A DNA stretch of 64,000 nt from Candidatus Kuenenia stuttgartensis (GCA_945877135.1 CAMCQY010000004.1:1584-65583), one strand, 5' to 3'. Counted from the stretch's first letter, positions 10,382 to 59,300 are shown. Notes: a model not told the origin generated them from the sequence alone. Numbers and translations: made by a program.

Positions 10382-10440
10382 AGCGAAAAGTTACCCTGCG
10401 ATGGGACGATGGTCCAGCGACGATTGAAGCGATTTCCGAC

Positions 10441-13769: not shown

Positions 13770-13863
13770 TCACACCGCTTCTTCTCGCCGCTGGGATCGA
13801 GGCCGCGCGGCACAACCGGGCCGTTTCAGCACAAGGATTCGAGTCCCAGGATCTGCACTCATC

Positions 13864-16205: not shown

Positions 16206-17476
16206 GCCTCCGCCGCCCGGGCCGCAGCGTCCGACGGTGACTCGATTCTTCTGGAAAACATGTCCCTTGTCGCGGTGTCCATGAACCTGCGCTCGAAGCA
16301 GAGATGGAAGACGTAGGCCAAGGTCAGGCTCAGCAGCGTGCCGACGATCATCATGGCTGCCCAGTGCAGCAAACGATGTGGCCAGAGGAATTGCGTCGCC
16401 CTTGCCATGAACACCAGTACGATGCCGTGCGTGAGGTAGAGGCTGTAGGAAAACAGGCCGAGCCCCTGAAGCCAACGTGACTCGAGCAGCCTGCGAATAC
16501 GTGACGCCGTGCCTCCGATCCGTTCGCCGCGTTCGCAGTCCTGGGTCAGCCAGACGATGAACGCCGCCGCCGCCACCGCCGCCAGCATGTCATAGATCCA
16601 CCGCACTCGCAGTGAAGTGACATAGTACGGCACCGGAATTCGCCCCCTCAGCGTATCGAGCGGCACGCTGGCATCCAGCAGCGCGATGCCCGTCACCATC
16701 ATCAGCCCCGTAGTCAGCGCGATCGTGCCCCATGGCCATCGTCGCATGACACGTGCCTGCGGACTCTGCCCATACGCAATGCTTGCACCAGTGGCGCCGA
16801 TGCCGAATATCGGGATCATCCATGGGAGGAAGTAGACGCACCACCCGCGGGCATAGCCCTCCGTGAGCGCGGCAGCCAGGGCGGTGCAGATGGCCAGTGT
16901 CACCCACACTCCAAACCGCCGCCAGATCGGCACGAGTGCGAATGCAAAGAGAAGGTAGATCTGCCACTCGCAGGCTATGGACCAGAGGATTGCATCCATG
17001 CCGCTGACCCAATCCACGCTCGTGTTTTGCACGAGGAGGAGGTGTGCCACGACGCTGGGCCAGCGGAAGCCGTTTGTCATCTGTTCCTGCACGTGCGTCC
17101 CAGGAGAACGGCCGAGTAAGGAAAAGAGCCAGGACATGCCCACAAAAAACAGCATGTCGAGCAGGTAGGCCGCGTAGTATGCGGGCAGAATCCGCAGCGA
17201 CCGGCGCCACATGAACCCGCTGATTCCGCCTCGCAGCGTGAGCCCATTCGTCACCACGGGCATGGAAAGAAGGAAGCCCGAGAGCACCAGGAACACGGGC
17301 ACCGCGAGGTAGCCGTGCAGGAGCGGCACGTTCAGCGTTCGGATGATCGGCCCCGCCGACTCGGGGCCTGTGTTGAGCGTGAGGTGAAACAGCACGATGG
17401 CGAGCGCGGCGAGGCCCCGCACGCCGTGCAGGAACTCCAGGCGTGGCCTGCCGGTGCGGAGTCCTTCAGAGGTCAT
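16181..17476 (-). CDS. Acyltransferase family 3 (OafA/YrhL-like O-acetyltransferase)
   Basis: Begins RLEFLHGVRGLAALAIVLFHL, followed by ~10 TM segments. The start at 17476 overlaps the upstream FkbM stop by 11 nt. The 3' end overlaps the convergent SGNH gene by 25 nt. Confidence 0.8.
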   Translation of the reverse strand: MTSEGLRTGRPRLEFLHGVRGLAALAIVLFHLTLNTGPESAGPIIRTLNVPLLHGYLAVPVFLVLSGFLLSMPVVTNGLTLRGGISGFMWRRSLRILPAYYAAYLLDMLFFVGMSWLFSLLGRSPGTHVQEQMTNGFRWPSVVAHLLLVQNTSVDWVSGMDAILWSIACEWQIYLLFAFALVPIWRRFGVWVTLAICTALAAALTEGYARGWCVYFLPWMIPIFGIGATGASIAYGQSPQARVMRRWPWGTIALTTGLMMVTGIALLDASVPLDTLRGRIPVPYYVTSLRVRWIYDMLAAVAAAAFIVWLTQDCERGERIGGTASRIRRLLESRWLQGLGLFSYSLYLTHGIVLVFMARATQFLWPHRLLHWAAMMIVGTLLSLTLAYVFHLCFERRFMDTATRDMFSRRIESPSDAAARAAEAHSRSSVD

Positions 17477-18308
17477 CGCGATACCCCGCGCTGGAGAATA
17501 TCGAAAACAGCCTCCGCAGCGGCCGCGTCCAACGCCATGAGCGGCTCGATCGGATCTGGGCGATGATGGCATCCCTGCCGCCGACCGCCGCGGCAACGAA
17601 CGGGCTCGACTCATCGATCTCGCATCCCCCCGCGAGGTCGTGGATGTTGACCGGTGTCGAGAGCGCCGCCTGGAGCTCTGGCCGCTCCTCGGCCACGTAG
17701 AATCGGTTCAAGCCGTCGAAAAGCGTGAAGCGGTAGCCCGCATCGAGCAGGAGCGGCTCCCAGGCATCGTGGGCCGGCTCCGTGGAACCGGGCCGCGTGG
17801 CCTCGATCAGCACGATCCAAGGACGCAGCGTTCGCGGATTCCAGCCGCGCAGCACCTTCTCCTCCATCCCCTCGACGTCGATCTTCATCCAGTGCACGTC
17901 CTGGCCGGCAAGTGAGGCACAGGCCTGCCCGAGCGTCGTCGTCTTCACGTCCCGCTCCTCGGCGACCTGCCCGGACTGCCTGTAGCCATCGGCGTACTCG
18001 ACTGCCCCAGTGCTCAGGCCGGATGCACTGGTCACGACAAAACGGAGGGTGCCCTCCGTGTCGGAGAGGGCGACCTCGTGCACGATCTCGTCGGGCCGGT
18101 CCTCCCTGATCCGTGTCGCGAACGCGGGATTGGGCTCGAAGTGCACGCCCCGCCAGCCCTGCTCATAGAAGCCCCTGCTCACCGACTCGCACCGCGGATC
18201 ATGTGCGCCGACGTCGATGTAGCAGCCTTGACGCACGTGCCCAAGGGTTCGCCAGAGGAGAATGTCCTCGAGGTTCTGGGCGTATGACCGGAATGTGATC
18301 GGCGACAC
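17466..18308 (-). CDS. FkbM family methyltransferase
   Basis: Has YIDVGAHD (SAM motif) and WMKIDVEGMEEKVLRG, typical of the FkbM family (sugar O-methyltransferases). Confidence 0.8.
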   Translation of the reverse strand: MSPITFRSYAQNLEDILLWRTLGHVRQGCYIDVGAHDPRCESVSRGFYEQGWRGVHFEPNPAFATRIREDRPDEIVHEVALSDTEGTLRFVVTSASGLSTGAVEYADGYRQSGQVAEERDVKTTTLGQACASLAGQDVHWMKIDVEGMEEKVLRGWNPRTLRPWIVLIEATRPGSTEPAHDAWEPLLLDAGYRFTLFDGLNRFYVAEERPELQAALSTPVNIHDLAGGCEIDESSPFVAAAVGGRDAIIAQIRSSRSWRWTRPLRRLFSIFSSAGYRDDL

Positions 18309-18332
18309 GAACAGACCCCGTGGATTGCGGCT

Positions 18333-20135
18333 TCAAATGATGCAAAGGAGATCGGTGTGAAACAACCGCTCGTCGGCGGTCGATGCGAGTACGGCAGCGT
18401 ACAACTCCTCGACCTGGGCCACTTCCAGCGGCTGCCGTCGCTGCCACTCAGGACGTCTCAGATCGTATATTGCCCGGCAGCGTCGCAGAAAACCAAACAC
18501 TCGCTCTCGGCCGCCGCACCGCTCGATGCCGTAGGGCCAGAACTCAATGACCACGAACGGCCGGCGCTCCCTGGCGAAGATCCCGTTGGCCCCGTCGAGC
18601 ACGTGCCCTTCGTGCCCCTGCGTGTCGATCCATATGAGGGCCGTGTCGTCGAATGTCGTACCGCAATCGGCCTCCAGAAGGTCGAGGGTAGTCGCCGTGA
18701 TGTCCCGCGTCTCGCGACCCGCTTCACCATAGGCGTCGGCGGTCCGTCCAGTGGCCGACCTCATGCGATGATCCCCGAGGTTGTCTCCCGACACCTCCAT
18801 GACGGCAGGGCCCGCGGTGTCGGACACCGCAACGTTGAACAGTCGCGTCCGGTCCTGGCAATGGTTGAGTGCGACGTTGCATGTGAGGAGCCTAAAGTTG
18901 TCCTGATCCATCTCAACCCCCACGCCACTGGGGAACGTGCCGTCGCGCAAGCCGCGCAGCAGGTGGCTGCCGATGTTGGCTCCGATGTCCACGAAGAACC
19001 TCGGGATGAAGCCGTGGCTCTTTCTCAGGAATCGCACGACGTCGACGACGAGCCCTTCCTCGAAGGAGCCTCGTTCTCGGAGCATGCGGCCGATCACGGC
19101 GTCGTGCTCGAACACGAGCATCGGCCCGTTGTCGGTGTCGGCCAACGCGACACGTCGATCACCCAACGCGGTGCCCACCCCGCCGAAGAGCGACTCCCGA
19201 GCCACGTTGCGGCTGATCGCGGGAATCTCTATCCCCGCGTCTACGGATTGAAAACTCGCCACGATGAGCCCGTCGCCGCTGAACGACTCCTCGACCGCGT
19301 GCTCGCAGAAGATCGTCGCGCCCAGGAGGGAGAGCTGCCGCAGGCAGTCCTGGTGCGTCGTGGGTGAACCGCTGATCGAGGCATGGTGCGTCGACACGAC
19401 GACAAACCGCAGCAGACCTTCCCCAACGGCTTGGCCGAGTGATTCGAGAAACGGCAACTCGGCCCCCTGGCAGTCGATATGCAGCATCTCGATCGGTCTC
19501 CTGCCCACGACGTCGAGCAGGCTGTCCATGGAGTGGCACGGCACGCACACCGTCACCCCGTCGGACTCTCGCCGCAGGGGCGTCGCCTCGGCATGGTCGC
19601 GTCCCACGCAGGCGTTCACCCAGGTGGCAGTCCTCCCGTTGATCGCGAGGTTCCGCTGCCCGCAAGCCATGTTGTCGGGGGCCGGCTCGACGCAGACGGC
19701 GGTCGAACCCGCGACGGCACCGAGGTACCAGTTCGTGTAGTAAGCCCAGAACGCACCCACTTCCACGATCGTCGTCCCCGGGCGGCAATGGCAGAGCAGG
19801 TGGTGAAAGACATACTCCTCCTGCGGTTCGTGGTGCCCTTTCAGGTCGCGGATGATCTCCGTCATCCAGTCACCGCAGTAGCCTCCGGCCACGACGAGTG
19901 TGCCGTCGTGCATGATCTGCAGCTTCATGCCATCACGCTTGATCACTTCTCCAGCCCGCGGCACCTTCGGCACCAAGTCCGTGTCGCGACACCGCACCGT
20001 CATCGCCACCCGACGGGCCGCCTCGGGGTCGACGACGCCCCGGCTTCCGGCGCGGCCGCGCGCCGCTGACGCTCGAAAGAGGTCGGCCCACCGTGTCAGC
20101 CGATCCACGAAGGTCATCTTTGGTCTCCAGACCAT
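18333..20135 (-). CDS. Tandem double FkbM-family methyltransferase
   Basis: Two FkbM-like halves are present. The first has IVEVGAFWAY...LHIDCQGAELPFLES and the second has FVDIGANIGSH...IWIDTQGHEGHVLDGA. Confidence 0.7.
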   Translation of the reverse strand: MVWRPKMTFVDRLTRWADLFRASAARGRAGSRGVVDPEAARRVAMTVRCRDTDLVPKVPRAGEVIKRDGMKLQIMHDGTLVVAGGYCGDWMTEIIRDLKGHHEPQEEYVFHHLLCHCRPGTTIVEVGAFWAYYTNWYLGAVAGSTAVCVEPAPDNMACGQRNLAINGRTATWVNACVGRDHAEATPLRRESDGVTVCVPCHSMDSLLDVVGRRPIEMLHIDCQGAELPFLESLGQAVGEGLLRFVVVSTHHASISGSPTTHQDCLRQLSLLGATIFCEHAVEESFSGDGLIVASFQSVDAGIEIPAISRNVARESLFGGVGTALGDRRVALADTDNGPMLVFEHDAVIGRMLRERGSFEEGLVVDVVRFLRKSHGFIPRFFVDIGANIGSHLLRGLRDGTFPSGVGVEMDQDNFRLLTCNVALNHCQDRTRLFNVAVSDTAGPAVMEVSGDNLGDHRMRSATGRTADAYGEAGRETRDITATTLDLLEADCGTTFDDTALIWIDTQGHEGHVLDGANGIFARERRPFVVIEFWPYGIERCGGRERVFGFLRRCRAIYDLRRPEWQRRQPLEVAQVEELYAAVLASTADERLFHTDLLCII

Positions 20136-23053: not shown

Positions 23054-26000
23054 ATGATGAATCCGGCCGCGGCAACGGAGCCGTCATTCATCCTTTCATC
23101 GGGACCGGTCCACCGGGCTACGCAGGAATTCTCGCTCGGCGCGGCTCTCGTCCCCCTGCCACGAACGACGAGCCACGTGCCCCCCCCGATTGCCGCCTCC
23201 ACATTTCGCTCCGTCCCCCTCCCGATCGACTGGTGGTGGCTCGACCGGAATGTCACCGAGGCCGACCGGCCGGCCCTTCTCGGCTCCGACGGCCAGATCC
23301 TGTCACGCGTGGAACTGGCGGCGGCCGTGCAGAACTGCGTGCAGTTCCTCGCGGAACACGGAATCCGCCAAGGTGATCGCCTAGCGCTTTCGATCGCACC
23401 AGGGCCCGCTCGTGCGGTAGCCCTCCTCGCGGGGATGGCCACGGCGACGGTCGCTCCGATCACGCAGACCGCGCCGCGAGAGATCGTTGAGGCAGACCTG
23501 GTCCGACTCCGGGTCACCAGAGTCGTGGTCGATGATCAGCCTGCTGCCGCCGTGGTGAAGGCTGCCGAAGCACTGCAACTGCCGCTTCTCTCCATGAATC
23601 CGTTCACGGTGCCAAGCCGCCAAGGCGTTCTGCCGCCGGCACCGGCCGCCGACGACGTGGCCCTCATGCTCCAGTCGTCCGGCACCACCTCGCGACCGAA
23701 GGTCGTGCCACTCACCCACGCCAACCTTCTCGCCGGCGCCCATGCCGTGGTCGAGACCCTCGCCCTGGATTCCGCGGATCGCGCGCTGGCCGCGATGCCG
23801 CTGTTCCACGTTCACGGCGTCGTGGCGACGCTGTTGGCTCCGTTGCTGGCTGGCGGCAGCGTGATCTGCTGCCGCGAACGCGCGGTCGAGGAACTCGTGG
23901 CGCACCTGACGAATCTGCGGCCCACCTGGTTCTCGGCATCCCCCCCGCTGCTCCTAGCCCTGCTCGAAGAGGTGCAGCGTGCCGGCGCGATTCCGCCCCC
24001 TCATCACCTTCGATTTATCCGCGCCGTCACCATGCCGCTCGGCTCCACCGCGAGACAGCGGCTCGAGTCGGTTTTTCAGGTGCCCGTCGTGGAGGTCTAC
24101 GGCATGACGGAGGCCTCGTCGCAGGTATGCAGCAGCCGTCTGCCCGGCCCCGGCGTGGTTCATCGTCCGGGTACCGTCGGCCTGCCGGCAGGCCCCGACG
24201 TCGCCGTACTCGCCGTCGACGGCGAGCATTGCCCTCCCGGCGTCGTCGGACAGGTTGTTATCCGCGGCCCCAGCGTCACGCCTGGCTACGAGGGGGAGGA
24301 GCACAGCGGCTGGCAACGCGACGCCCGCGGAGAGTCCTGGTTCATGACGGGCGACGAAGGGCAATTCGACGACCATGGCCACCTGACGCTGACGGGGCGG
24401 CTCAAGGAGATGATCAATCGGGGTGGGATGAAGGTGGTGCCCCTGCGAGTGGACGACGCGCTGAATCGCCACCCCGCCGTACGGGAGTCGGTCGCCTTCG
24501 CCATTCCTCATCCGACGCTCGGCGAGGATGTCGCGGCTGCGGTGGTGCTCCACGCGGGCGCCATGGCGGGCGAACAGGACCTGCGCGATCACCTGATCGC
24601 CGTGTTGTCCGCCCACGAGGTGCCGTCGAGGATCGTCTTCGTCGAGTCGCTGCCGCGCGGTCCCGGCGGGAAGCTGCAGCGAATCGGCCTGGCTAGTCGC
24701 CTCACCGACCACCTGCACCCGTCCGAATCACCTCCCTGTGGCCAGATGGAGCAGCTGGTCGCAGGCATATTCGCTTCGATCCTCGGCCTCGATCGCCCAG
24801 GCCGCGATGCCAATTTCTTTCAGCTGGGCGGTGATTCCCTTTCCAGCCTCGGTGCGATTCACCGTCTGGAACAGTCGCTCGGCATGGAGCTCAATGTTGG
24901 TCTCGTCTTTCTCAATCCGAGTGTCCGCGGGCTCGCGCACGCCCTCGACCTGCTGTTGGTGGATGCGGAATCGCGGGTACCAAACACCGCTCCGCTGTCG
25001 CCCGATGCGGAAAACGACCTGCCGCGTCGCATCGCCCGACTGCGGGAAGGTCTCGCCGCCCCTCCCGCGCTGGACATCCCCGTCGCGACCGCCCTGCCAG
25101 GCCCCCGGCCACCTGGCTGCGAGATCTATCCCGCCTCGTTTGGGCAGGCCCGCCTCTGGTTCCTGCACCAGTTGGAGCCGGGGCTCACCGCCTATCACAT
25201 GCCGGCACTGTGGCGACTGTGCGGAGCCCTCGATCGGTCGGCTCTGGAGCGGGCAGTGAATGCCCTGATCGACCGACATTCCACCCTGCGCACGTCGTTC
25301 CGCCTCCATGAGAACGTCGTGCAGCAGGTCATCCATCCCGCGTTCACGGTGCAGCTCGCTTCGGAAGGGCTCGAGGGTCGTGACGCAACTGCAGTGGCGA
25401 ACGAGTGGCTCCGGGAGGAGGGCTCCACGCCCTTCGACCTCGAATCGGCCGTGCAGCTGAGAGCACGTCTTCTGGAGGTCGGCCCCGACGAGCATCTCTT
25501 TCTGCTGAACCACCATCACATCGCCTCCGACGGCTGGTCCCGGAACGTGCTGTGCGAGGACCTGACCGCGCTCTACAACGCCGCACTGTCCGGCGAGCAG
25601 CCGAACCTCCCCGACCTTGGCGTGCGTTACCAGGACTACGCCGTCTGGCAACGCGGCCGTCTCCGCGGCGCCCGCACCACGAACCTTGTCGATTACTGGA
25701 TGCAACGCCTCGACGGAGTCGAGTCGCTCGCGTTGGCCGCGGATGCCAATCGCCCACCAGACGCCTGCCATGCGGGCGGATCAGTATCGTTTCGGATCGA
25801 ACGCTCGTTGCTTGCGCCGTTCGAGGAATTATGTCGGGCGGAGGGGGCCACGCTGCACATGGGGCTGCTCGCCGCCGTGGCGGTGGTGCTGCACCGTCAT
25901 ACGCAGCAGGAAGACTTCGCGATCGGGATTCCCATGTGGGGCCGCAACCATGCGCAGCTCGAGCACCTGATGGGGTTCTTCGTCAACACGCTGCCGATCC

Positions 26001-29000
26001 GCGTGCGTTTCGAGGGTCGGCAGAGCTTCCGGCAGCTGCTCGCGCAGGTCCGCGCGACCTCGATCGAAGCCTACGCCAATCAGGAGCTTCCCTTCGAGCA
26101 GATCGTCGCGTCGCAGAAGATCGCCCGAGACCCCGCCCGCAACCCGCTCGTGCAGGTGATGCTCCAGGTCGCCTCGATGCCACTGCCGTCGTTGCACGGC
26201 ATGCTGGGCCTGTCCGTGGAGCGACTGCCTGTTCCCCCGGGACGCGCGAGGTTCGACCTGGAGTTTTTCATCCGCCAGGACGAGGGACGGGGAATGCACG
26301 GCGAGTTGACCTACGATGCCGACCGGTTCGCCGGCGACGGCATCGAGCGGCTTGTCGGTCACCTGCTGACGCTGCTGACTTCGCTGCTCCGTGATCCCGA
26401 CGCCCCCACCTCCGGCCTGACTTTGCTCCCGGCCCCCGAGCGGCAACGGATCGCGGCTTGGCAATGCGGTGCAACCCGGGACGGCCCCCACGACGTCGTC
26501 CATCGGTTGTTCGAGCGGCAGGCCGCACGGACGCCCGACGCCGTGGCGTTGATCTGCGACGACCGGTCGCTCACCTACGCCGATCTCGATGCCCGGGCCA
26601 ACCGTCTCGCGCATCATCTCGTCGCGCATGGAGCAGGCTCCGACACACTGGTCGCGGTGTGCCTCGACCGCTCCGTTGAGCTGATGGTGTCGGTCCTGGC
26701 GATCCTCAAGTCGGGGGCGGCGTATCTGCCTCTCGACCCCGCTTGGCCCGCACTGCGCCGGCAGCGCGTGCTGGAGGCATCCGGCGCCGCGTTGCTGCTC
26801 ACCGACGAGGATCCCGCCGCCTTCTGCGGTGCGACGCACACCACGACCATCGATCCCACGAGGCTCGACTTGCGGTCGCACTCCGACGCCCCGCCCGTTC
26901 CCCAACGGGCATCCCCCGAGTCGCTGGCATACGTGCTCTATACGTCGGGCTCCACGGGGCGACCGAAGGGCGTCGCCATGCCGCACCGTCCGCTGGTCAA
27001 TCTGCTCGCCTGGCAGGCCACGCGTATGCCGGAAGCCGCCCGCACGCTCCAGTTCGCCAGCCTCGGATTCGACGTATCGTTCCAGGAGATCTTCTCGACC
27101 TGGCAATCCGGTGGAACGCTTGTGCTCGTCGCCGACAGGGTGCGGATCGATCCATCCGCCCTCCTGGCCATGATCGAACAGCGTGGCATCGAGCGGCTCT
27201 TCCTGCCGGTGGTGATGCTCGGGCATCTGGCGGATGCGGCGGAGGTGAGCGGGCGCGTTCCTGGTGGCCTGCGGCAGGTGATCGTCGCCGGCGAGCAGCT
27301 GAGGATCTCACCCTCCATCCGCCGATTCTTCGCCCGGCTCCCGGCCTGTCGGCTCTGGAATCACTATGGCCCGACCGAGACACACGTCGTCACGAGTTGC
27401 CTGCTGCCGCCCGACCCCACCGCCTGGCCAGAGCTCCCGCCGATCGGCCTGCCGATCGATAACACGCAGGTGTACGTGCTCGACCGGCACATGCAGCCAA
27501 TGCCGCAGGGCGTCGCCGGCGATCTTTGGATCGGCGGGGCTGCCGTGGCGCGGGGCTACTGGCGGCAGCCCGAACTGACCGCAGACCGGTTCATCCCAGA
27601 TCCGTTTCTCGACAGCCCGCACGCACTGCTCTATCGCACCGGGGATCGCGTCCGCTGGCGAGGCGACGGTCAACTCGATTTTCTCGGTCGCACCGACGAC
27701 CAAGTCAAGATTCGCGGCCAACGCGTTGAACTCGGCGAAGTCGAGGCCGTGCTTGTTACGCATCCCGGCGTGAGGAGCGCGGCTGTCGCGGTTTGTGGGG
27801 ATGCAGACACGCATCGAACGCTCGTCGCCTTCGTGACGTGCCTCCCGGGAGACGCTCCGCGGCCGGCCCACCTGCGGACGTGGCTGCGGTCGCTTCTTCC
27901 CGACGCGATGGTGCCCACGGACGTCCTGGTGCTTTCGGACCTCCCTCTTAATGCCAATGGCAAGATCGATCGCCGGGCGCTCGCGGATCTCGCCGCCCGA
28001 CGGCCGCGCATCATGGAGCCCATCGGTGTCGCCGGCGCGCCGCCCGATTCCACTGAACCGGACGAACTGCAGGACTCGACCAGATTGCCCACGCTTCTCG
28101 AGGCCGAAATCACTCAGATCTGGCAGCGGCTCTTCGAGTGTGATGCCATCGACCACACCGCCGACTTCTTCCAGTTGGGTGGAGACTCGCTGATGGCCGT
28201 GCAGATGGCGGTGGAACTGGAGCGGCTGCTGGGCCACCGCATCCCGATCGCCACCCTCTTCGAAGCCCCGACGATCCAATCGCTGGCACGAACGCTCGCC
28301 GATGAGTCCTGGATGCCTGGCTGGAAGTCTCTCGTGGCCCTCCACCCCGACGGTTCCCGACCGCCCCTCTTCGTCGTTCATGGCATGGGCGGCGACGTCT
28401 TCTACGCGTCGCGTCTGGCGAGGCTGCTCGGCCCGGACCAGCCGGTGTACGGTATACGCGCCGAGGAGACCGAAGGGGGTGAACTCCCAACCGGTGCCAT
28501 CGAGGCGCTGGCGAGCCGCTATGCCCGCGAGATCCGTGGTCTGCAGCCGGAAGGCCCGTACCATCTGGCGGGTTATTCGGCTGGTGGATGGTTCGCCTAT
28601 GCGGTCGCGACGCACCTTCAATGCCAGGGGCAGGCGGTGACCATTCTCATCTTCGACACGAATCCACACTGCGTGCTCCCCTGGCCCGCGAAAGCGTGGC
28701 AGATTCTGTACTTCGCCCTCCATTCGATCACCGGTCTCTCCTACCACACCCAGAAGATGTCCGACATGCGTGCAAGTGCATGGCCCGGGTACATCGTCTC
28801 CCGGGTCGAGCACGTCCTGCGCCGGAACCGAAACGAGCTTGTCGACACCGACGCGAGCGATCGTTTCACCCGCGGACTGGCCCGCTTCACTGCTCGCGTG
28901 ATCGATGCCCGCGTCGAGTTCTTCCAGGCGCGTGTCGCTTGGCTCCCAGGGCTTCAGGCGATTCCTCAGGCGAATGTCTGGCGTTCGCTGGTGCGCGGCC

Positions 29001-29104
29001 CCGTGAACGTCCATCCTCTTCGCTGCCGCCACTCCGAGATATTTTCTCAGGCGCACCTGCCGACCACGGCAGCGCTCGTGCGGCGCGTCCTGGGCGGGGC
29101 ATGA
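23054..29104 (+). CDS. Bimodular nonribosomal peptide synthetase: ANL-ligase(A)-T-C-A-T-TE
   Basis: Module 1: LQSSGTTSRPK (~23669), MPLFHVHGV, YGMTEAS, GDEG..GRLKEMINRGGMKV, and T domain FFQLGGDSL (~24828). C domain: HHHIASDGWS (~25511). Module 2: YTSGSTGRPKG (~26941), FDVSFQE, NHYGPTE, YRTGDRVRW..GRTDDQVKIRGQRVELGEVE, NGKIDR, and T domain FFQLGGDSL (~28178). TE domain: GYSAGG (~28571). Confidence 0.95.
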   Translation: MMNPAAATEPSFILSSGPVHRATQEFSLGAALVPLPRTTSHVPPPIAASTFRSVPLPIDWWWLDRNVTEADRPALLGSDGQILSRVELAAAVQNCVQFLAEHGIRQGDRLALSIAPGPARAVALLAGMATATVAPITQTAPREIVEADLVRLRVTRVVVDDQPAAAVVKAAEALQLPLLSMNPFTVPSRQGVLPPAPAADDVALMLQSSGTTSRPKVVPLTHANLLAGAHAVVETLALDSADRALAAMPLFHVHGVVATLLAPLLAGGSVICCRERAVEELVAHLTNLRPTWFSASPPLLLALLEEVQRAGAIPPPHHLRFIRAVTMPLGSTARQRLESVFQVPVVEVYGMTEASSQVCSSRLPGPGVVHRPGTVGLPAGPDVAVLAVDGEHCPPGVVGQVVIRGPSVTPGYEGEEHSGWQRDARGESWFMTGDEGQFDDHGHLTLTGRLKEMINRGGMKVVPLRVDDALNRHPAVRESVAFAIPHPTLGEDVAAAVVLHAGAMAGEQDLRDHLIAVLSAHEVPSRIVFVESLPRGPGGKLQRIGLASRLTDHLHPSESPPCGQMEQLVAGIFASILGLDRPGRDANFFQLGGDSLSSLGAIHRLEQSLGMELNVGLVFLNPSVRGLAHALDLLLVDAESRVPNTAPLSPDAENDLPRRIARLREGLAAPPALDIPVATALPGPRPPGCEIYPASFGQARLWFLHQLEPGLTAYHMPALWRLCGALDRSALERAVNALIDRHSTLRTSFRLHENVVQQVIHPAFTVQLASEGLEGRDATAVANEWLREEGSTPFDLESAVQLRARLLEVGPDEHLFLLNHHHIASDGWSRNVLCEDLTALYNAALSGEQPNLPDLGVRYQDYAVWQRGRLRGARTTNLVDYWMQRLDGVESLALAADANRPPDACHAGGSVSFRIERSLLAPFEELCRAEGATLHMGLLAAVAVVLHRHTQQEDFAIGIPMWGRNHAQLEHLMGFFVNTLPIRVRFEGRQSFRQLLAQVRATSIEAYANQELPFEQIVASQKIARDPARNPLVQVMLQVASMPLPSLHGMLGLSVERLPVPPGRARFDLEFFIRQDEGRGMHGELTYDADRFAGDGIERLVGHLLTLLTSLLRDPDAPTSGLTLLPAPERQRIAAWQCGATRDGPHDVVHRLFERQAARTPDAVALICDDRSLTYADLDARANRLAHHLVAHGAGSDTLVAVCLDRSVELMVSVLAILKSGAAYLPLDPAWPALRRQRVLEASGAALLLTDEDPAAFCGATHTTTIDPTRLDLRSHSDAPPVPQRASPESLAYVLYTSGSTGRPKGVAMPHRPLVNLLAWQATRMPEAARTLQFASLGFDVSFQEIFSTWQSGGTLVLVADRVRIDPSALLAMIEQRGIERLFLPVVMLGHLADAAEVSGRVPGGLRQVIVAGEQLRISPSIRRFFARLPACRLWNHYGPTETHVVTSCLLPPDPTAWPELPPIGLPIDNTQVYVLDRHMQPMPQGVAGDLWIGGAAVARGYWRQPELTADRFIPDPFLDSPHALLYRTGDRVRWRGDGQLDFLGRTDDQVKIRGQRVELGEVEAVLVTHPGVRSAAVAVCGDADTHRTLVAFVTCLPGDAPRPAHLRTWLRSLLPDAMVPTDVLVLSDLPLNANGKIDRRALADLAARRPRIMEPIGVAGAPPDSTEPDELQDSTRLPTLLEAEITQIWQRLFECDAIDHTADFFQLGGDSLMAVQMAVELERLLGHRIPIATLFEAPTIQSLARTLADESWMPGWKSLVALHPDGSRPPLFVVHGMGGDVFYASRLARLLGPDQPVYGIRAEETEGGELPTGAIEALASRYAREIRGLQPEGPYHLAGYSAGGWFAYAVATHLQCQGQAVTILIFDTNPHCVLPWPAKAWQILYFALHSITGLSYHTQKMSDMRASAWPGYIVSRVEHVLRRNRNELVDTDASDRFTRGLARFTARVIDARVEFFQARVAWLPGLQAIPQANVWRSLVRGPVNVHPLRCRHSEIFSQAHLPTTAALVRRVLGGA

Positions 29105-29391: not shown

Positions 29392-29465
<74 letters not shown>

Positions 29466-52964: not shown

Positions 52965-53279
52965 TTAGTAACGGCGACCGCCGCCGCCGCCACCGTAACC
53001 ACCGCGACCACCACCGCCACCGCCACCGCTCTCACGCGGCTTGGCCTCGTTGACGGTCAGAGCCCGGCCGCCAAAATCCTTCTCGTGCATGCCGCTGATC
53101 GCCCGCTGGGCAGCGTCGTCGGACTGCATCTCGACGAACCCGAAGCCCTTGCTGCGACCGGTGTCGCGATCCTGAATCACCTGAGCGCTGACCACGGTTC
53201 CGAATTCAAGGAACATCTGCTCCAGCGACTCGCTCGTCACACTGTACGAAAGGTTTCCGACATAAAGTTTCTTACCCAT
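52965..53279 (-). CDS. RNA-binding protein (RRM domain) with a Gly/Arg-rich tail
   Basis: RNP2 KLYVGNL, RNP1 KGFGFVEM, and a C-terminal GGGGGGGRGGYGGGGGGRRY tail. Confidence 0.9.
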   Translation of the reverse strand: MGKKLYVGNLSYSVTSESLEQMFLEFGTVVSAQVIQDRDTGRSKGFGFVEMQSDDAAQRAISGMHEKDFGGRALTVNEAKPRESGGGGGGGRGGYGGGGGGRRY

Positions 53280-53502: not shown

Positions 53503-56500
53503 CTAGGGGGTAGCGTCGCCGGGGGGCGAGCCCTCGGCGGGCGGGTCGTCGAGGAATTTCGCGAAGTTGAACTCGTCGGCCCCGAAGCCGCCGCCGAGTT
53601 TGCCCGTGAAGCCGAAGTCGTCGCCTGGGGTAGCACCCGGCAGCGTCGATTGTGCGGGCGTGGCCGCTCCTCGCGGGGCGGCGAACGGTCGCTCCACCGG
53701 CGTGCCCTGAGGCCGGGCCCGCAACGTGGCCGAGACTCCTGCGAGCCACTCGCCCGATGGAAATGCATAGGGACGGAACTTCTCGAGCGTGCCCGTCTCC
53801 TCGTGGACAAACAGGGCCCGCTGCGGCCCCAGCTTCACGGCCGCGGGGCTGTCTACCAACTGGCTGGAATCGGAGCCGCTCATCTGGAAGAGCACGCGGA
53901 GTTCGAACTCCTTGAGCGCACCACGCTCGAACGTCCGCTGCAGGTTTGTCAGCGAGTCGCACCAGATGAGCACATGAACGCCCACCGGCGGTCCATCCTT
54001 GAGCAGGTTCACCAGATTCTGCGCGGGCGTCGCCTTCTGGTCGCCACCGAATGACGAATAGCCGAAGTCGGCCTCGTTCCGCCGCAGTTCTCGGAAGCGG
54101 GCCAGATCGCGGATGATGACGTAGACCGACTCGCCGTCGAGCACCTGCTCCTCGATCCGTCGCCGGACCTCGGTGGCGAGGCGTTCCACGGCGTCCCCCA
54201 CACTGAGTCGGCCCACCACTTCCGTCTCGTGCGGAAGCGCGGTGGCAAGCGTGGCCAACAGGATGTCGGGCTTCTCCTCGGCGATCGCCGGCTCGAAGAG
54301 CACGAATCGTCCGGCGCGGCCCAGGCCGCCGCCGGGATGGGGATCATGGGCCGCAGCCAGGCTGACCATCGACATCGCCAGCAGGCTCACGCCAAGATCC
54401 TCTCGCTGCCCCACGATGAGCAGATTCGCGCCTCCCTGGCGACGGAAGACAGCCGCCGTCGGATCCTTGATGGCGATCGCATCGCCCAGCCACGCCAGTG
54501 GGACCGGCTCGGGCTTGCCGGCCACCGTGCCTTTGTCGAGCAGTTCGGCAAGCAGGGGGTTTCCGGAGGGAGCGGCCGCCTCGTTGCCGTCGAACACGAT
54601 GCGGGGGAGTGCCGGGATGTCGGTCCGTCGGTCGGCCAGACGTCGCAGCGCGCCGAGATAGCGTTCCCGACGCTCGTCGTTGAGGAACACCACCTGAAAC
54701 GGATTGTTGCCGGCGACCATGCCGTTGGCGTCGTTGTAGATCGCCTCGCCGGGGCGGGTCAGCAGGCGGGCCGCGGTGTTGTCCTCGCTGAGAATGAGGC
54801 TCGAGTCGGCCTCGTTGCATTGCAGTGCGATGCGAACCGCCATCTGCCCCATCGTCGCACGAGGCAGGCTGTAGGAGCCTCCGAGAGTCTGGGAGCCGAG
54901 CAGTACGTGCATGCCAAAGGCTCGGCCCTGGCGGACGAGGCGGTCGAGAATCAGGGCGGCATCCTGGGCGATCTTGTCGTCTTCGACGAAGATTTCCTGA
55001 AACTCGTCGATGATCAGCAGGATTCGCGGCATCGGGTCGGGGTGGCCCGTCTGGCGGAAGCCGGCGACATCCTGCACGGCGCACTCGCGGAACAGATCAC
55101 CGCGATGCTTCAGCTCGCGGTCGAGCTGCTCGAGCACCGACAGCCCGAATTCCCGTTCGCTCTCGATGGCGATCACGCGGGCGTGCGGCAGCTTGTAGTG
55201 GTCGTAGAGCTTGAACTCGACGCCCTTCTTGAAGTCGATCAGGTAGAACTGGATCTCGCTGGGGCTGTAGTTGAGAGCGAGGCTTGTGATCAGCGCGTGC
55301 ATGAGCGTGGATTTGCCCGAACCCGTCTTGCCTGCGATCAAGGCATGCTGGCTCGTGCCCTTGCCAAGCTTGATGAACTGGAGCTTCTTGGCGCCGGCCG
55401 GGCCCAGCGGCGCGAGCACCTCGCTGGCGGTGCTCCCCGTCCACCACTCCTCCTCCTTCGGCGCCACGCGGTCGAAGGGCACCTCGACCCGCTTGGCCGC
55501 CTTGGCCGCCTTGCCGACCCGCTGGATGATCTTGGTGAACACCTCGTCCGACGGAGGCTGCTCGACTGCAAGGGGCCACTTGCAGAACTCCGCGTCGCTC
55601 GTCCAGGTGGTGACGCCGTCCTTGAGCGTGAGCACGGTGGCATGCTTCTCGAGGTCGGCGATGCTGAAGTTCGACGGCATGTGCTGCGATGTGTCGATCG
55701 AGACGATCGTGTAGACGCCGCAGCGAGCGCCGGAGGCGGCGATGCTGGCCAGACGCCGGGCGCTGTTCTCGGTGAAGTTGGCAGGAAAGTTTGCGACCAC
55801 GACGAAGCGATAGGGCTCAGGCACCTCGGCGTCGGCGTTGTAGGCGCCAATCGATTCGTATTCGTTTCGGAGGTATTTCTGGATCACAAGTTCGATCTGT
55901 TCGGTAATGTCGGCCAGGCATTGCTCGATCTGCGGCGGCTCTGTCCAGATTCGGCTGGTGACCAGAAGTTCGTCGTAATCGGCCAGATGCATGAAGCCGG
56001 CGAACTGCTTGCCCAGGCCGAGCGGATCGATGATCGTGAACCTGCTCTGGCCGGCCGGGATGCCGCTGGCGATCCGCAGCATGAACGCCTGCATCATGTC
56101 GGAGGCGGGTTCTTTCTGGTCGCCGGTGGCCCGGATCACCAGCGACGCGGCGGAGGGGAACGGCACGATTGCCGGCTGGGTCCAGGCGACCGGACCGAAG
56201 GTGTTCAGGTCGGGCTGCGACGACACGCCCCCCGGCACGTTTTCCAGCGAGAGAGCCAGTTGCCCGAACCGTAGGCCCGGCGGCGGCAGCGTCGGCAGCG
56301 GGCACTCCTCAGTGGACAGCTCACTCCAGGGATGGAAGGCAGCGGCATCGACGGCGGCGGCATCTTCGTAGATCGCGGCGGTCTCCGTGCGGGCCGTTCG
56401 CCAGGCTTCGGTCATCGCCTGCCAGCGTTCGGCCCGACGGCGGCCGGCAGCAGACAGCCGCTCGTCGCGAGCCCGCACCAGTTCTGCCACGGCCTGTCCA

Positions 56501-57882
56501 CGGCCGGCGGTCAACATCTCCAGCCGCGCCGGGTATTTCGCGTCTGCAGCCTCGCGGACCGTGGTGCGTTTCTTGTCGATGGCTTGAACGGCCGTCTCGT
56601 ACTTCGCCGCCAGGTCGGCAAGGAGCTTGTCGCGTTTCTCCGCAGCCCCGGCGATATCGGCCTCAGCCTTGAGCTTCCGCTGATTGGCTTCCTCCGCGAA
56701 CGTGGCATCGAGCTTCGCCAGCTGCGCGTCGTGGCGGGCCTTGACGTAGCGGCCGCTCGCCACGAGGCAGTGACGCGTGCGGGCAATGGAGCCGACGAGT
56801 TCATCCCGCGCTGCAACTGCCTGGGCGGAGGCTGTCTTTCGCATTCGGCCAATAAACCAGAATCCGATCCCGATCCCGGCCACCGCCACGGCGGCCAACG
56901 CCGCAATCGCTGCCGTAGCCCGGGTGTTCAGATCGGCAGCCAACGACTCCGGCACCTGCAGGAAGGTCGCCACGGCGGCCCCGATCCCCAGCAGCAGCGG
57001 CAGCATGATGGCTGCCGCCCGCGCGCCGCCAGAAAATGCCCGCGCTACCGACTTCATCCCCAGCACCGCCGCCGACTGGTTGGCCACGGTGGTGCGAAGC
57101 TGCTCGAGGTGCGTCAGCAGGGCGGCCCCGGTCGGCAGCGGCTCGGCAGCGGCCGGCGCCGGCGCGGCCGCTTGCGAGGGCGCGGCCGCTTGCGAGGGCG
57201 TGTCTGGGGCGGCGTCGTTCGAAGCGGCATCGGTTGCCCCAGCGGCGTCGGCAGCGGTGGGCGTGACTTCTGCGAGGGGTGCCGCCACTATCCGGCGATC
57301 GACGAGGAACTTCAGACTGCGGGTGTCGGAGTCGTCGAGCTGGGCGGTGATGTCGGCGAACTGCTTCTCAGCCCGCCGCAGGATCAACGCCGGCTCCTTC
57401 CGCTTCTCCTTGAAGACCTCCTTGGCCTGATTCTCCTCGAAACGCGAGTCTTCCTTGAGCTGCGCGTCCTGCTTTTCCCAGTTGCGTCTGTAGGTCGTGG
57501 CGTAGTTCTTCTGCTGTGCGTCCAGCTTGGTACGCTCGGCGGCAGCTTCTGCGTCGGCCTTCGCGATCACCTCCGCGTGCTCGCGCCGCGTGGCCTCTGA
57601 TTCGCGGGCGTGCTTCTTTTCGACGGCGGCGATCGCCGCGTCCGCCTCGCGTTTTGCCGCGGTGGTTTCGGTGTTGTGCTCGGCGGTGATCTCGCGTTCC
57701 AGCTGGCTCCGGGTGGAAGCAGCCTGGCGCAGGCGGGTGATCTGCTCTCGCAGCAGTTCGCGGTCGTAGGAGGTGTGGCTCACTGCGGCATGTCCATCTA
57801 CGGGTGTCTCACTTCTCGTGTCGGGAGTCGCGGTATCGGGCAACGGAGTGTCAGGAATCGTGGTGTCAGGAATCGTTGCCAT
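53503..57882 (-). CDS. EccC/EssC-like FtsK/SpoIIIE family ATPase (coiled coil, 2 TM, three P-loop domains)
   Basis: The canonical domain has ALIAGKTGSGKST (Walker A) and ILLIIDEFQ (Walker B). It is flanked by degenerate copies (IRATGDQKEPAS / RFVVVANF and LLIVGQREDLGVS / VYVIIRDLARF). TM pair: IMLPLLLGIGAAVATFL and AALAAVAVAGIGIGFWFIG. An SD sequence (GGGAGG) lies 6 nt before the ATG. Confidence 0.85.
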   Translation of the reverse strand: MATIPDTTIPDTPLPDTATPDTRSETPVDGHAAVSHTSYDRELLREQITRLRQAASTRSQLEREITAEHNTETTAAKREADAAIAAVEKKHARESEATRREHAEVIAKADAEAAAERTKLDAQQKNYATTYRRNWEKQDAQLKEDSRFEENQAKEVFKEKRKEPALILRRAEKQFADITAQLDDSDTRSLKFLVDRRIVAAPLAEVTPTAADAAGATDAASNDAAPDTPSQAAAPSQAAAPAPAAAEPLPTGAALLTHLEQLRTTVANQSAAVLGMKSVARAFSGGARAAAIMLPLLLGIGAAVATFLQVPESLAADLNTRATAAIAALAAVAVAGIGIGFWFIGRMRKTASAQAVAARDELVGSIARTRHCLVASGRYVKARHDAQLAKLDATFAEEANQRKLKAEADIAGAAEKRDKLLADLAAKYETAVQAIDKKRTTVREAADAKYPARLEMLTAGRGQAVAELVRARDERLSAAGRRRAERWQAMTEAWRTARTETAAIYEDAAAVDAAAFHPWSELSTEECPLPTLPPPGLRFGQLALSLENVPGGVSSQPDLNTFGPVAWTQPAIVPFPSAASLVIRATGDQKEPASDMMQAFMLRIASGIPAGQSRFTIIDPLGLGKQFAGFMHLADYDELLVTSRIWTEPPQIEQCLADITEQIELVIQKYLRNEYESIGAYNADAEVPEPYRFVVVANFPANFTENSARRLASIAASGARCGVYTIVSIDTSQHMPSNFSIADLEKHATVLTLKDGVTTWTSDAEFCKWPLAVEQPPSDEVFTKIIQRVGKAAKAAKRVEVPFDRVAPKEEEWWTGSTASEVLAPLGPAGAKKLQFIKLGKGTSQHALIAGKTGSGKSTLMHALITSLALNYSPSEIQFYLIDFKKGVEFKLYDHYKLPHARVIAIESEREFGLSVLEQLDRELKHRGDLFRECAVQDVAGFRQTGHPDPMPRILLIIDEFQEIFVEDDKIAQDAALILDRLVRQGRAFGMHVLLGSQTLGGSYSLPRATMGQMAVRIALQCNEADSSLILSEDNTAARLLTRPGEAIYNDANGMVAGNNPFQVVFLNDERRERYLGALRRLADRRTDIPALPRIVFDGNEAAAPSGNPLLAELLDKGTVAGKPEPVPLAWLGDAIAIKDPTAAVFRRQGGANLLIVGQREDLGVSLLAMSMVSLAAAHDPHPGGGLGRAGRFVLFEPAIAEEKPDILLATLATALPHETEVVGRLSVGDAVERLATEVRRRIEEQVLDGESVYVIIRDLARFRELRRNEADFGYSSFGGDQKATPAQNLVNLLKDGPPVGVHVLIWCDSLTNLQRTFERGALKEFELRVLFQMSGSDSSQLVDSPAAVKLGPQRALFVHEETGTLEKFRPYAFPSGEWLAGVSATLRARPQGTPVERPFAAPRGAATPAQSTLPGATPGDDFGFTGKLGGGFGADEFNFAKFLDDPPAEGSPPGDATP

Positions 57883-58099
57883 CGCTCACCTCCCGGCTGG
57901 CGCGAGACAATACCTCGGCAAGCCTGCCGATGGCCTCGAGGGTTTCCTTCACCCGTGGAGAAAGCGGCTCGATGTGCTCCTTGTGGAACGCTCTGCTCGT
58001 GCCGTCGTCCCAGGTTTCCCGGGCCGATTCCCACTTCAGGTGGAGGTGCTTGAGCGCCAGCGCCATCTTCGACGCCCCGCTGGAAAGATCGGCGTTCAT
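57866..58099 (-). CDS. Small helical WXG100-like protein (77 aa)
   Basis: Predicted helix-turn-helix with a central ETWDDGTSRAF. The start overlaps the upstream stop (ATGA at 58096-58099). The 3' end overlaps the ATPase start by 17 nt. GGGGGAG lies upstream. Confidence 0.55.
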   Translation of the reverse strand: MNADLSSGASKMALALKHLHLKWESARETWDDGTSRAFHKEHIEPLSPRVKETLEAIGRLAEVLSRASREVSDGNDS

Positions 58100-58743
58100 G
58101 CCCCGTCTCCCCCGCGACCGGCCGGAGGTGCTGACGGGGCCTGCCCGCCGCCGGTGCTGTGGTTTGCAGCCGGTGCCACGGCGGACGACGGCTCATCCAC
58201 GGGCCGCGCGACCGATGCCGTCGTGTTGTCCGCCGCTCCGCCAGCTGCGCTGCGAGGCGCCGACGTATGGACATAGTGGTCGAGTGAGACGAGCATCCGT
58301 TCCAGCCTCGCCACGGCCTTTGGGCAGTCAACGTCGATCACCTCTCGGAATCGCGTCATGCGGACGCCCGTCTCCTGAAACTGCTGCCGCACCACGGGGG
58401 CCCACCGACGCACGGCCTCCGCCTTCTCTTCGGCGCGTGCCAGCTTCTTTCTGGCCTTCTCGAGCGCTTTCTTCTCCTCGATGCAGGAGGGCTCGTTGTT
58501 GCCCACCTTCTTGAACGTCCGGCAGTGCTGCAGGTCCTTCATCGCCTGGTTGACGCCATCGGCAGCCCGGCGGACCTCCGTCTTCCAATAGGCGGCCTGT
58601 TCGATGCAGATCCAATCCACAATTCGTTGGGCCTGCATTTCGACCTCGGCAAGCGATTGGCCCGTTTCATGGCCAAACGCCACCATTGCCGCCTTCACGA
58701 AGGCGAGCGTATCGATCGAGTTGACTTCCGCTTGTGTGGACAT
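58096..58743 (-). CDS. Helical hypothetical protein (215 aa) with an Ala/Pro/Gly-rich tail
   Basis: Sits between the two WXG-like genes. The ATG at 58743 is 18 nt after the upstream stop. It has a coiled-coil segment KKALEKARKKLARAEEKAEAVRRW. I recognised no family. Confidence 0.5.
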   Translation of the reverse strand: MSTQAEVNSIDTLAFVKAAMVAFGHETGQSLAEVEMQAQRIVDWICIEQAAYWKTEVRRAADGVNQAMKDLQHCRTFKKVGNNEPSCIEEKKALEKARKKLARAEEKAEAVRRWAPVVRQQFQETGVRMTRFREVIDVDCPKAVARLERMLVSLDHYVHTSAPRSAAGGAADNTTASVARPVDEPSSAVAPAANHSTGGGQAPSAPPAGRGGDGA

Positions 58744-58760
58744 GGCTGGCGTGGTGGTTG

Positions 58761-59033
58761 TCAGCGTTGCTGCTGGTATTGCTCGACCCGCTCGGCCTTG
58801 CGAACCAGATAGGGAACGTAATCCTCCGTCGCCTCGACGAAGCGGGCGAAGGTGCTGAGCTGTTGTTCGAACTCCTCGGTGAATTTCTGCTGTTCCGCAT
58901 CCCGCCACGTGGAGCTGAGTGCCGCCAGCTGCCTTTGCACGCCGTGCATCTGCGACATCACTTCGGTGCTGAAGAAGCGGAGTCGGGCCGCGAACCGACG
59001 CAGTTCCTCAGGATCGACGATGACCTGTCCCAT
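58761..59033 (-). CDS. WXG100-like (ESAT-6-like) small protein (90 aa)
   Basis: N-terminus is MGQVIVDPEELRRFAARL. The central turn STWRDAEQQKFTEEF follows the W-x-G/A..F pattern with D in place of G. The fold prediction is two long helices. AGGAG lies 9 nt before the ATG. Confidence 0.65.
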   Translation of the reverse strand: MGQVIVDPEELRRFAARLRFFSTEVMSQMHGVQRQLAALSSTWRDAEQQKFTEEFEQQLSTFARFVEATEDYVPYLVRKAERVEQYQQQR

Positions 59034-59300
59034 GATGTCGGTTCTCCTTCAGGTTGGACGGCCGCATCTCACGAGCGGTCCGCTGTTGGTCATCGTATCG
59101 CTTTCACCGCAAAGACGCACACCCCGAGGGGACTGCGGCGACCACCGGAACGGCTGGGAAAGAGAGCGGGTTGTCCGCCGCGCCGCTGTGCGATTGAACG
59201 CCCCGGGCGTACACTGTCGCGGATCGTCCAAGCGACCCACGGTTTTCCCCGAGGTTCTCGTTCAGCCCGTCATCTGCACCCCGTGAGGAGATATCGACCG

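Follow-up and report, generated by a model that had tools for sequence, protein, structure and literature searches.

Research on type VII secretion systems (T7SSs) has been confined to Actinomycetota and Bacillota, and the pairs of WXG100 proteins and FtsK-type ATPases of Gram-negative bacteria are functionally unconfirmed as secretion systems. T7SSa combines the ATPase EccC with the WXG100 substrates EsxA and EsxB, T7SSb (Ess/Yuk) combines EssC/YukB(YueA) with EsxA/YukE, and variants of the latter have been designated T7SSc-j (PMC11217815). Diderm systems that combine a solo WXG protein with a distinct YueA-like ATPase were listed in one sentence by Zhang, de Souza, Anantharaman, Iyer & Aravind 2012 (Biol Direct 7:18, Table 1 footnote 6; PMC3482391), who termed them "mobile" and explicitly named planctomycetes among the lineages. 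A 2023 review (PMC10765036) cites Sutcliffe 2011 and Unnikrishnan et al. 2017 on such diderm systems. In our literature search, T7SSs in Planctomycetota appeared only in brief survey or review mentions (PMC3482391, PMC10765036), and we found no laboratory test of them. Here, we analyze a cassette of this kind from a freshwater planctomycete, located at positions 53503-59033 of a 64,000-nt stretch of DNA (GCA_945877135.1, CAMCQY010000004.1:1584-65583; the whole stretch is called the window below). Its four genes encode a WXG100 protein (g1), a helical protein (g2), a divergent WXG100-like protein (g3), and a membrane ATPase (g4).

Comparative surveys have already noted systems of the kind to which the cassette belongs. 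Because Zhang et al. 2012 had listed planctomycete systems, it is not new as a kind, which answers a question left open by a preliminary description of the window, namely, whether surveys had listed it (PMC3482391; see also PMC10765036). Three HerA/FtsK domains with an active middle one, a stand-alone WXG protein, and a planctomycete host are common to the cassette and the systems of Zhang et al. 2012, and the domain plan that we derived independently for g4 is identical to theirs. Going beyond that survey, we find four conserved genes, of which those for the second, divergent WXG100 protein and the helical protein were not described there; inheritance that appears vertical and syntenic within a clade; presence in at least three planctomycete lineages; and kinase fusions in Gemmataceae. 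What is added here is the definition of a four-gene module, evidence that its inheritance in this phylum is vertical and not mobile, family-wide counts of Walker motifs, the Gemmataceae kinase fusions, and a cultured carrier.

Like T7SSa, the cassette has a transmembrane (TM)-anchored ATPase, in which a degenerate domain is followed by further FtsK-like domains (in EccC, the essential D1 and others), and WXG100 proteins as its putative substrates. In contrast to T7SSa, the cassette loci lack EccB, EccD, EccE, MycP, EspG, PE/PPE proteins, and the YxxxD/E motif. EccC of T7SSa has four ATPase-like domains, whereas g4 has three, only one of them predicted to be active, and carries a long cytoplasmic N-terminal domain before its TM hairpin that EccC does not have. 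The envelopes also differ, being of the diderm type with lipopolysaccharide (LPS) here and a mycomembrane in T7SSa. With T7SSb the cassette shares g1, which resembles the homodimeric EsxA/EsxB type, and a theme of regulation by phosphorylation, represented by FHA domains in T7SSb and by kinase fusions in the Gemmataceae cassette. The EsaA, EssA, EssB, and EsaB proteins, FHA domains, LXG toxins, and immunity genes of T7SSb are missing from the cassette loci, and D2 and D3 of EssC retain nucleotide-binding motifs, whereas the outer domains of g4 do not.

Organization of the cassette

The cassette consists of four co-oriented, translationally coupled open reading frames (ORFs) on the minus strand. 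The preliminary description had placed all four genes correctly, as judged by an ORF check and by an independent gene caller, which made identical g1-g4 calls on a metagenome contig of the same DNA (L001):

58761-59033, minus strand: g1, WXG100 protein, 90 amino acids (aa)
58096-58743, minus strand: g2, helical protein, 215 aa counted from the ATG (the mechanical ORF extends upstream to a GTG)
57866-58099, minus strand: g3, divergent WXG100-like protein, 77 aa
53503-57882, minus strand: g4, membrane ATPase, 1459 aa

The ATGA overlap of g2 and g3 at 58096-58099 and the 17-nt overlap of g3 and g4 at 57866-57882 are as previously reported; a gap after g1 does exist, but it measures 17 nt and not the 18 nt claimed. 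Shine-Dalgarno (SD) sequences accompany three of the four starts (GAAGGAG for g1, GGGGAG for g3, and GGGAGGTG for g4), again in agreement with the earlier account, and g2 has none. The GC content of the cassette (65-68%) equals that of its surroundings, and no additional paralogues of g1, g2, or g3 were found within the window.

Distribution and inheritance

The gene order g1, g2, g3, g4 was present in all 62 related loci that had sufficient upstream DNA, a linkage far beyond chance. Within the clade to which the window belongs, the flanks are syntenic, with a Cld-like gene and YdjY upstream and HtrA and CinA downstream. This synteny persists over 55-97% ATPase identity, and divergence of the ATPase tracks that of the flanking housekeeping genes (Spearman rho 0.66-0.92). 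We do not regard the cassette as mobile there because its flanks are syntenic, its divergence co-varies with theirs, its GC content matches, and mobility genes are missing: no integrase, transposase, or tRNA-flanked island lies adjacent to it. Judged by these features, the cassette is a vertically inherited unit within the clade. No fifth gene was conserved beside it across the loci examined.

More than 150 clusters (50% identity) matched g4 at E < 1e-249 over nearly its full length. We found members of the ATPase family in at least 119 species-level genomes. Each of these is a metagenome-assembled genome (MAG) from Planctomycetota; the closest are 95-97% identical, and most are labelled Pirellulales, Planctomycetia, or Planctomycetaceae. 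The named carriers among the top 150 g4 representatives are Planctomycetota without exception. The cassette also occurs beside unrelated neighbors in divergent lineages (L084, L087, L088, and L090), where all four components are homologous by hidden Markov model (HMM). Identity to the window at L084 is 59% for g1, 37% for g2, 52% for g3, and 49% for g4. L087 is the complete genome of the cultured Urbifossiella limnaea (Gemmataceae; CP036273.1), and L088 is a Phycisphaerae-type contig.

The Gemmataceae g4 carries a Ser/Thr protein kinase domain at its N-terminus (variants of 1573-1594 aa; L087 3958-12722), and in Urbifossiella limnaea a separate gene for a 965-aa kinase lies directly upstream of the WXG100 gene. 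By analogy, these fusions suggest phospho-regulation and are reminiscent of the FHA domains of EssC.

Two peculiarities of the locus collection concern labels and assembly. Some GTDB titles for loci L006, L044, L048, L053, L055, L059, and L073-L075 read "Candidatus Kuenenia" or "Chitinophagaceae"; these are probably taxonomic mislabels, as the loci are 60-78% identical to, and syntenic with, Pirellulales loci. At L082 (10405-12717), the ATPase gene was called as several short pieces (363 and 212 aa), with neighboring genes fragmented too, which looks like frameshift errors of a long-read assembly and not real pseudogenization.

The small proteins g1, g3, and g2

As the preliminary description had proposed from size and layout, the 90-aa g1 product is recognizable as a WXG100 protein. 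It matched Pfam PF06013 (WXG100) with 41.7 bits, above the gathering score of 27.3, and consists of this domain alone, stand-alone and with no toxin fusion. Its best match in the PDB was HP0062 of Helicobacter pylori (E 5.5e-8 over 84 residues, ~30% identity), followed by EsxB of Bacillus anthracis and then by streptococcal homologues and EsxA of Staphylococcus aureus. The turn is WRD (W43-R44-D45), and the C-terminal helix, Y72-VPYL-RKAER-E-Y86, is near-invariant. The mean column identity of g1 across the clade (87%) is the highest of all cassette genes, and the Gemmataceae and Phycisphaerae proteins retain the turn as well as the C-terminal helix, whose pattern is Y-[VI]-P-[YF]-L-x-R-K-A-[ED]-R-x-E-x-Y. 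The NCBI pipeline already assigns names to g1 homologues.

HP0062 (PDB 2GTS, 3FX7) was compared structurally with the ESAT-6 family and reported as a homodimer, and a role as chaperone or adaptor has been considered for it (PMC3397514). It has in common with g1 an SWRDA..KF turn, a similar C-terminal helix, a diderm host, and a nearby FtsK/SpoIIIE gene, but the identity of the two proteins is only ~30%.

The claim that the 77-aa g3 product is also of the WXG100 type holds through its orthologues. The window copy itself does not reach the threshold of any WXG100 model (TIGR03930, E 0.048), but 21 of 24 orthologues matched PF06013 (best E 1.8e-5) and 19 of 24 matched TIGR03930 (best 8e-5). Because its orthologues match these Pfam and NCBIfam models, g3 can be classified as a divergent WXG100 protein with a shortened first helix. 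Its Trp turn, W30-D31-D32, is in register with that of g1 in a profile alignment. A comparison of g3 with the narrow g1 profile aligned the Trp turn alone and was not significant (E 0.018, probability 2.5%).

The description of g2 as a helical protein agrees with its AlphaFold2 model, which contains four helices (residues 4-26, 31-78, 88-138, and 142-161) and a central hairpin with a predicted local distance difference test (pLDDT) score of up to 96. From residue 162 onward the protein is disordered and variable, while the N-terminal domain of ~160 aa is conserved across classes; homologues in other classes range from 179 to 351 aa in total length and share this pattern of a conserved N-domain and variable C-terminus. 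This conserved head and variable tail resemble, by analogy, the layout typical of T7SS cargo. Searches of Pfam, NCBIfam, and PDB sequences gave no relative of g2, and PDB sequence searches with the g2 and g3 profiles gave nothing meaningful. Foldseek with the g2 model returned generic long helical hairpins (BAR domains, HlyD, and chemoreceptors; best E 0.12), and no relation to PPE, LXG, or EspB was demonstrable by Foldseek. The homologues of g2 form 601 clusters, every one named "hypothetical protein."

Further observations concern details of g2. Cys74 and Cys87 (58483-58524; C-x12-C) lie at the tip of the central hairpin and are invariant in Pirellulales-type loci, including L084. We rejected the pair as a general disulfide or metal site of g2 because it is absent in Gemmataceae (L087) and Phycisphaerae (L088). 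The disordered tail contains a clade-specific SV[AT]RQxDE motif, and the Phycisphaerae-type protein (L088 5688-6743; 351 aa) has ~190 extra C-terminal residues with no recorded family. Hydropathy analysis found no hydrophobic signal sequence or TM segment in g1, g2, or g3, and the three proteins carry no Sec/Tat signals.

A membrane ATPase with one predicted catalytic domain

An EccC/EssC-like plan had been proposed for g4, and we recovered it: an N-terminal domain, two TM helices, a stalk, and tandem FtsK-like domains, with EccC and EssC as the best matches in sequence and fold. The parts of the protein are as follows:

57028-57882, minus strand: N-terminal cytoplasmic domain (predicted), aa 1-285, with a variable PDT-rich start and then an Ala/Glu/Lys/Arg-rich helical region
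56851-57015, minus strand: TM hairpin of two helices, aa 290-308 (Kyte-Doolittle peak 2.25) and aa 326-344 (peak 2.34), joined by a short acidic loop
56323-56838, minus strand: helical stalk, aa 349-520, Ala/Arg-rich, 1% Pro
55453-56265, minus strand: domain A, aa 540-810, FtsK-like predicted pseudo-ATPase lacking Walker motifs
54658-55452, minus strand: domain B, aa 811-1075, the sole predicted catalytic FtsK/SpoIIIE domain
53728-54585, minus strand: domain C, aa 1100-1385, predicted pseudo-ATPase and, by analogy with D3 of EccC, candidate substrate dock
53545-53619, minus strand: C-terminal tail motif GDDFGFTGKLGGGFGADEFNFAKFLDD, aa 1422-1446, after a Pro/Gly-rich linker

Matches to g4 came from PF01580 (E 3e-29) and, as the best of NCBIfam, from the EccCa, EccCb, and EssC models (E 1e-31 to 1e-29). 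The scores for TIGR03924, TIGR03925, and TIGR03928 were 109, 105, and 102 bits, with cut-offs of 509, 347, and 778, and the best-scoring NCBIfam match covered a single P-loop domain and not the full length of EccC or EssC. EccC structures led the PDB sequence search, with 4nh0 as the best match. We also modeled aa 521-1459 using AlphaFold2; the multiple sequence alignment was shallow and the mean pLDDT was 47, so we used the model only for its pattern of secondary structure and for ranking by Foldseek. The top Foldseek match was again the multi-domain EccC structure 4nh0 (E 1e-18, 883 columns), followed by D2-D3 of EccC/EssC, all ahead of single-domain FtsK and TcpA. Taking sequence and fold together, the best matches were 4nh0 and 7np7. 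The D1 profile gave its top scores, 97-103 bits, on EssC-like D1, the first ATPase domain in EssC-like proteins that bear FHA domains, compared with 73-84 bits on D1 of EccC and 65-72 bits on FtsK motors. The FtsK domains PF17854 and PF09397 (alpha/gamma) and the 4TM domain PF13491, which genuine FtsK matches carry, are absent from g4, and no FHA domain was found by Pfam.

The presence of three FtsK-like domains bears out the preliminary description, which had credited all three with a P-loop; only the middle one has it, and the outer two are degenerate. The single Walker A motif is GKTGSGKS (aa 851-858; 55309-55332), and the single Walker B motif is ILLIIDE (aa 954-960). In hhalign comparisons, domain C aligned with domain B (probability 97%, E 5e-11, 216 columns), placing GQREDLGVS over GKTGSGKST, and domain A aligned with domain C (probability 96%, E 4e-9). 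The direct comparison of A with B was not significant (E 0.17); the homology of A to B is thus transitive, being significant only through C. The N-terminal domain, used as a control, had no similarity to the other blocks. We then counted canonical motifs in a family alignment that comprised the window protein and 146 diverse relatives retrieved by exhaustive HMMER searching (147 representatives in total):

Domain A (outer): Walker A in 1 of 147, Walker B in 0 of 147
Domain B (middle): Walker A in 147 of 147, Walker B in 146 of 147
Domain C (outer): Walker A in 0 of 147, Walker B in 0 of 147

One of the three domains is therefore predicted to be nucleotide-competent, in a plan of pseudo-ATPase, ATPase, and pseudo-ATPase.

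Basic residues flank the cytoplasmic ends of both TM helices, so the predicted topology of g4 is N-in/C-in. The N-terminal domain contains at most 2% each of Pro and Gly and has no Pfam match; the first TM helix of the family lies at median residue 222. The composition of the stalk suggests a coiled coil. Residues 1-33 (57783-57882) are the PDT-rich, low-complexity sequence TIPDTTIPDTPLPDTATPDT, which is not conserved, and orthologues align from about aa 30-39. A GTG codon (V34) is a possible alternative start; the annotated ATG has the strong SD sequence given above. Within the tail motif, G1424-D1445 is invariant in the clade and the motif is present in 2 of the 147 family representatives, making it a candidate clade-specific docking motif.

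The upstream region, the host, and the remainder of the window

In an alignment of 12 loci, the intergenic region between g1 and the Cld-like gene has a mean column identity of just 46% and contains two conserved motifs:

59207-59215, minus strand: AGTGTACGC, with columns invariant or nearly so
59092-59100, minus strand: CGATAC[GC]AT, ~60 nt before the g1 start, with alignment columns C201-T209 invariant

Both are followed by a conserved SD sequence, AAAGAGG. The second motif includes TAnnAT, a -10-like hexamer, although a sigma-70 consensus scan had no match there. Consensus sigma-70 promoter and terminator scans gave matches no more frequent than in shuffled sequence, and an Rfam scan found a distant tRNA only. 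Together, the two motifs may be a candidate promoter or operator that acts on the operon or on the divergent Cld-like gene.

Genes for a lipid A acyltransferase, for MurB, and for a Mur ligase lie in the window, which is consistent with a diderm host envelope with LPS and peptidoglycan. A planctomycete host with a diderm-type envelope, as first proposed, fits both the lipid A acyltransferase gene and the restriction of the named ATPase carriers to Planctomycetota. The other membrane components of T7SSs were said to be missing from the window, and we likewise found none in the gene calls of 44.4-64 kb or in 20 large ORFs of 0-43.5 kb. No outer-membrane component was linked to the cassette in the loci examined.

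On the same strand, 223 nt downstream of g4, lies a gene for an RRM-type RNA-binding protein of 104 aa with a Gly/Arg-rich tail (52965-53279, minus strand); we place it outside the cassette because no relatives other than the closest (L002 and L047) have it. Farther away, a nonribosomal peptide synthetase (NRPS) of 2016 aa (23054-29104, plus strand) contains two AMP-binding stretches, condensation and carrier-protein domains, and a thioesterase, and a tRNA gene (29392-29465, minus strand) lies just downstream of it. The region 8780-20135 encodes a GT4 glycosyltransferase, an FkbH-like protein, an MBOAT O-acyltransferase, methyltransferases (including one of the FkbM type), and an Acyl_transf_3 protein; this polysaccharide-modifying cluster probably makes a surface glycan or an LPS decoration.

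Proposed mechanism and alternative explanations

Broadly defined, a T7SS has a WXG100 hairpin protein encoded beside an ATPase that is a membrane-anchored FtsK/SpoIIIE protein with tandem domains, and the cassette has both. The initial reading as a type VII-like secretion operon is thus supported at the level of homology and architecture, with secretion itself suggested by analogy. Sequence data reveal no function. We consider it slightly more probable than an even chance that the cassette encodes a minimal T7SS-like inner-membrane exporter, which would deliver helical-hairpin proteins into the periplasm. Its TM hairpin is predicted to anchor g4 in the cytoplasmic membrane, with the ~285-aa N-terminal domain and the ATPase region in the cytoplasm. 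If g4 behaves as EccC/EssC do, it would form a hexamer with a channel lined by its 12 TM helices, and the middle domain B would be the sole motor. Domain A would be the counterpart of the degenerate "DUF" domain of EccC and couple the motor to the membrane part, and domain C would dock substrates as D3 of EccC docks the tail of EsxB, with the near-invariant C-terminal helix of g1 as the likely docking signal. Folded helical bundles would then be pushed across the inner membrane to the periplasm, probably as a g1 homodimer and a coupled g2-g3 pair analogous to LXG-Lap or PPE-PE. We propose the homodimer because HP0062, the closest solved relative, was reported as one (PMC3397514), and the g2-g3 pair because of the ATGA coupling and the conserved helical N-domain of g2 with its variable C-terminus. 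The preliminary description had instead expected g1 and g3 to pair as a heterodimer in a four-helix bundle, a possible arrangement that the reported homodimer of HP0062 does not favor. As the module has no outer-membrane component, the periplasm would be the most likely destination. In planctomycetes, this compartment is unusually large. The Gemmataceae machine would apparently be controlled by Ser/Thr phosphorylation, through the kinase fused to g4 and the upstream kinase gene.

A bolder version is possible, though we find it rather doubtful. The cassette could be a self-sufficient minimal type VII translocon, ancestral to the Ecc/Ess systems or a stripped-down sister of them, that needs no EccB/D/E or EsaA/EssA/B scaffold. 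It would be inherited vertically and act, in a diderm of the LPS type, as a housekeeping exporter of helical-bundle proteins to the large periplasm, under Ser/Thr-kinase control in Gemmataceae.

Several results weigh against an exporter. Homology of g4 to the known ATPases has its limits: it scores far below the full-length EccC/EssC cut-offs (109 versus 509 bits), the model of its ATPase region is of low confidence (pLDDT 47), and the preference of the D1 profile for EssC/EccC over true FtsK, though real, is modest. D2 and D3 of EccC bind ATP, and two of the three g4 domains are predicted to be dead. The pairings of g1, g2, and g3 are a proposal built on analogy. No YxxxD/E signal was visible in g1, g2, or g3; EccB, EccD, EccE, and MycP were found neither in the window nor at four other loci; EsaA, EssA, EssB, and EsaB were not in any examined locus; and no toxin, immunity, or variable effector genes lie near the cassette. 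Strict vertical inheritance beside housekeeping genes suits a cell-biological role equally well. Finally, the 2023 review holds export to be unconfirmed for the WXG100/FtsK systems of Gram-negative or diderm bacteria (PMC10765036).

That inheritance pattern, phylum-wide and beside housekeeping genes (rho 0.66-0.92), is among the features that a non-secretory housekeeping membrane ATPase machine would explain, one that serves, for instance, membrane or envelope remodelling, budding division, or the assembly or disassembly of protein complexes, and in which g2 and the WXG100-type proteins would stay in the cytoplasm as adaptors or regulators. We think such a machine unlikely. It would account for the lack of linked effector, toxin, or immunity genes and of an outer-membrane component, for the long cytoplasmic helical domains of g4 on either side of the TM hairpin, for kinase fusions that suggest signalling integration, and for a g1 column identity of 87%, unlike that of fast-evolving secreted effectors; moreover, the possibility that HP0062 acts as a chaperone or adaptor has been raised (PMC3397514). 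However, all characterized pairs of WXG100 proteins and EccC/EssC are export systems, EsxA-type core substrates are highly conserved in T7SSb too, so that conservation is compatible with export, and nothing positive points to any specific alternative process. The same inheritance bears on the suggestion of Zhang et al. 2012 (PMC3482391) that such systems are mobile T7SS variants that spread horizontally and deliver polymorphic toxins. Their survey statement, the differing neighborhoods in different planctomycete lineages, and the variable C-terminus of g2 would fit, but the flanks within the clade are syntenic over 55-97% ATPase identity and diverge in step with the ATPase, the cassette does not stand out in GC content, an integrase, a transposase, a tRNA-flanked island, and toxin or immunity genes are all missing next to it, and the named carriers among the top 150 representatives are all Planctomycetota. 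We therefore regard mobile toxin delivery as very improbable for this cassette.

The ATPase might also belong to another class of motor. Relatives of g4 are annotated "DNA segregation ATPase FtsK/SpoIIIE" and FtsK motors score 65-72 bits with the D1 profile, as would be expected of an FtsK/SpoIIIE- or TraB-like DNA translocase for segregation or conjugation whose linkage to WXG100 genes is coincidental. Against this, g4 lacks the alpha, gamma, and 4TM N-terminal domains of FtsK; true FtsK matches carry PF17854 and PF09397 and align to the P-loop only; tandem pseudo-ATPase domains are an EccC-type feature; and the WXG100 linkage is invariant across the phylum, which together leave a DNA translocase a slim prospect. 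A role in defence against phages, with a HerA/FtsK-type ATPase at the center of the system, seems to us scarcely credible: the P-loop domain does match the PADLOC models SspH, mads_8, and HerA at the domain level, but these are matches of a single P-loop domain only, g1-g3 have no PADLOC match, partner genes are absent, and a vertical distribution in the core genome is atypical of defence islands.

Implications

The planctomycete cassette is a conserved module of several lineages and not a sporadic mobile curiosity, with Urbifossiella limnaea as a cultured carrier. Its plan of pseudo-ATPase, ATPase, and pseudo-ATPase amounts to a natural experiment on what the accessory ATPase domains do in EccC/EssC. 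If the minimal translocon is real, a T7SS could not be reduced further than one active and two pseudo-ATPase domains plus a TM hairpin and WXG100 partners, and the cassette would reveal an aspect of envelope biology specific to the phylum. The cassette makes two questions testable: what the minimal machinery for type VII-type transport is, and what role such a system has in a cell with an outer membrane.

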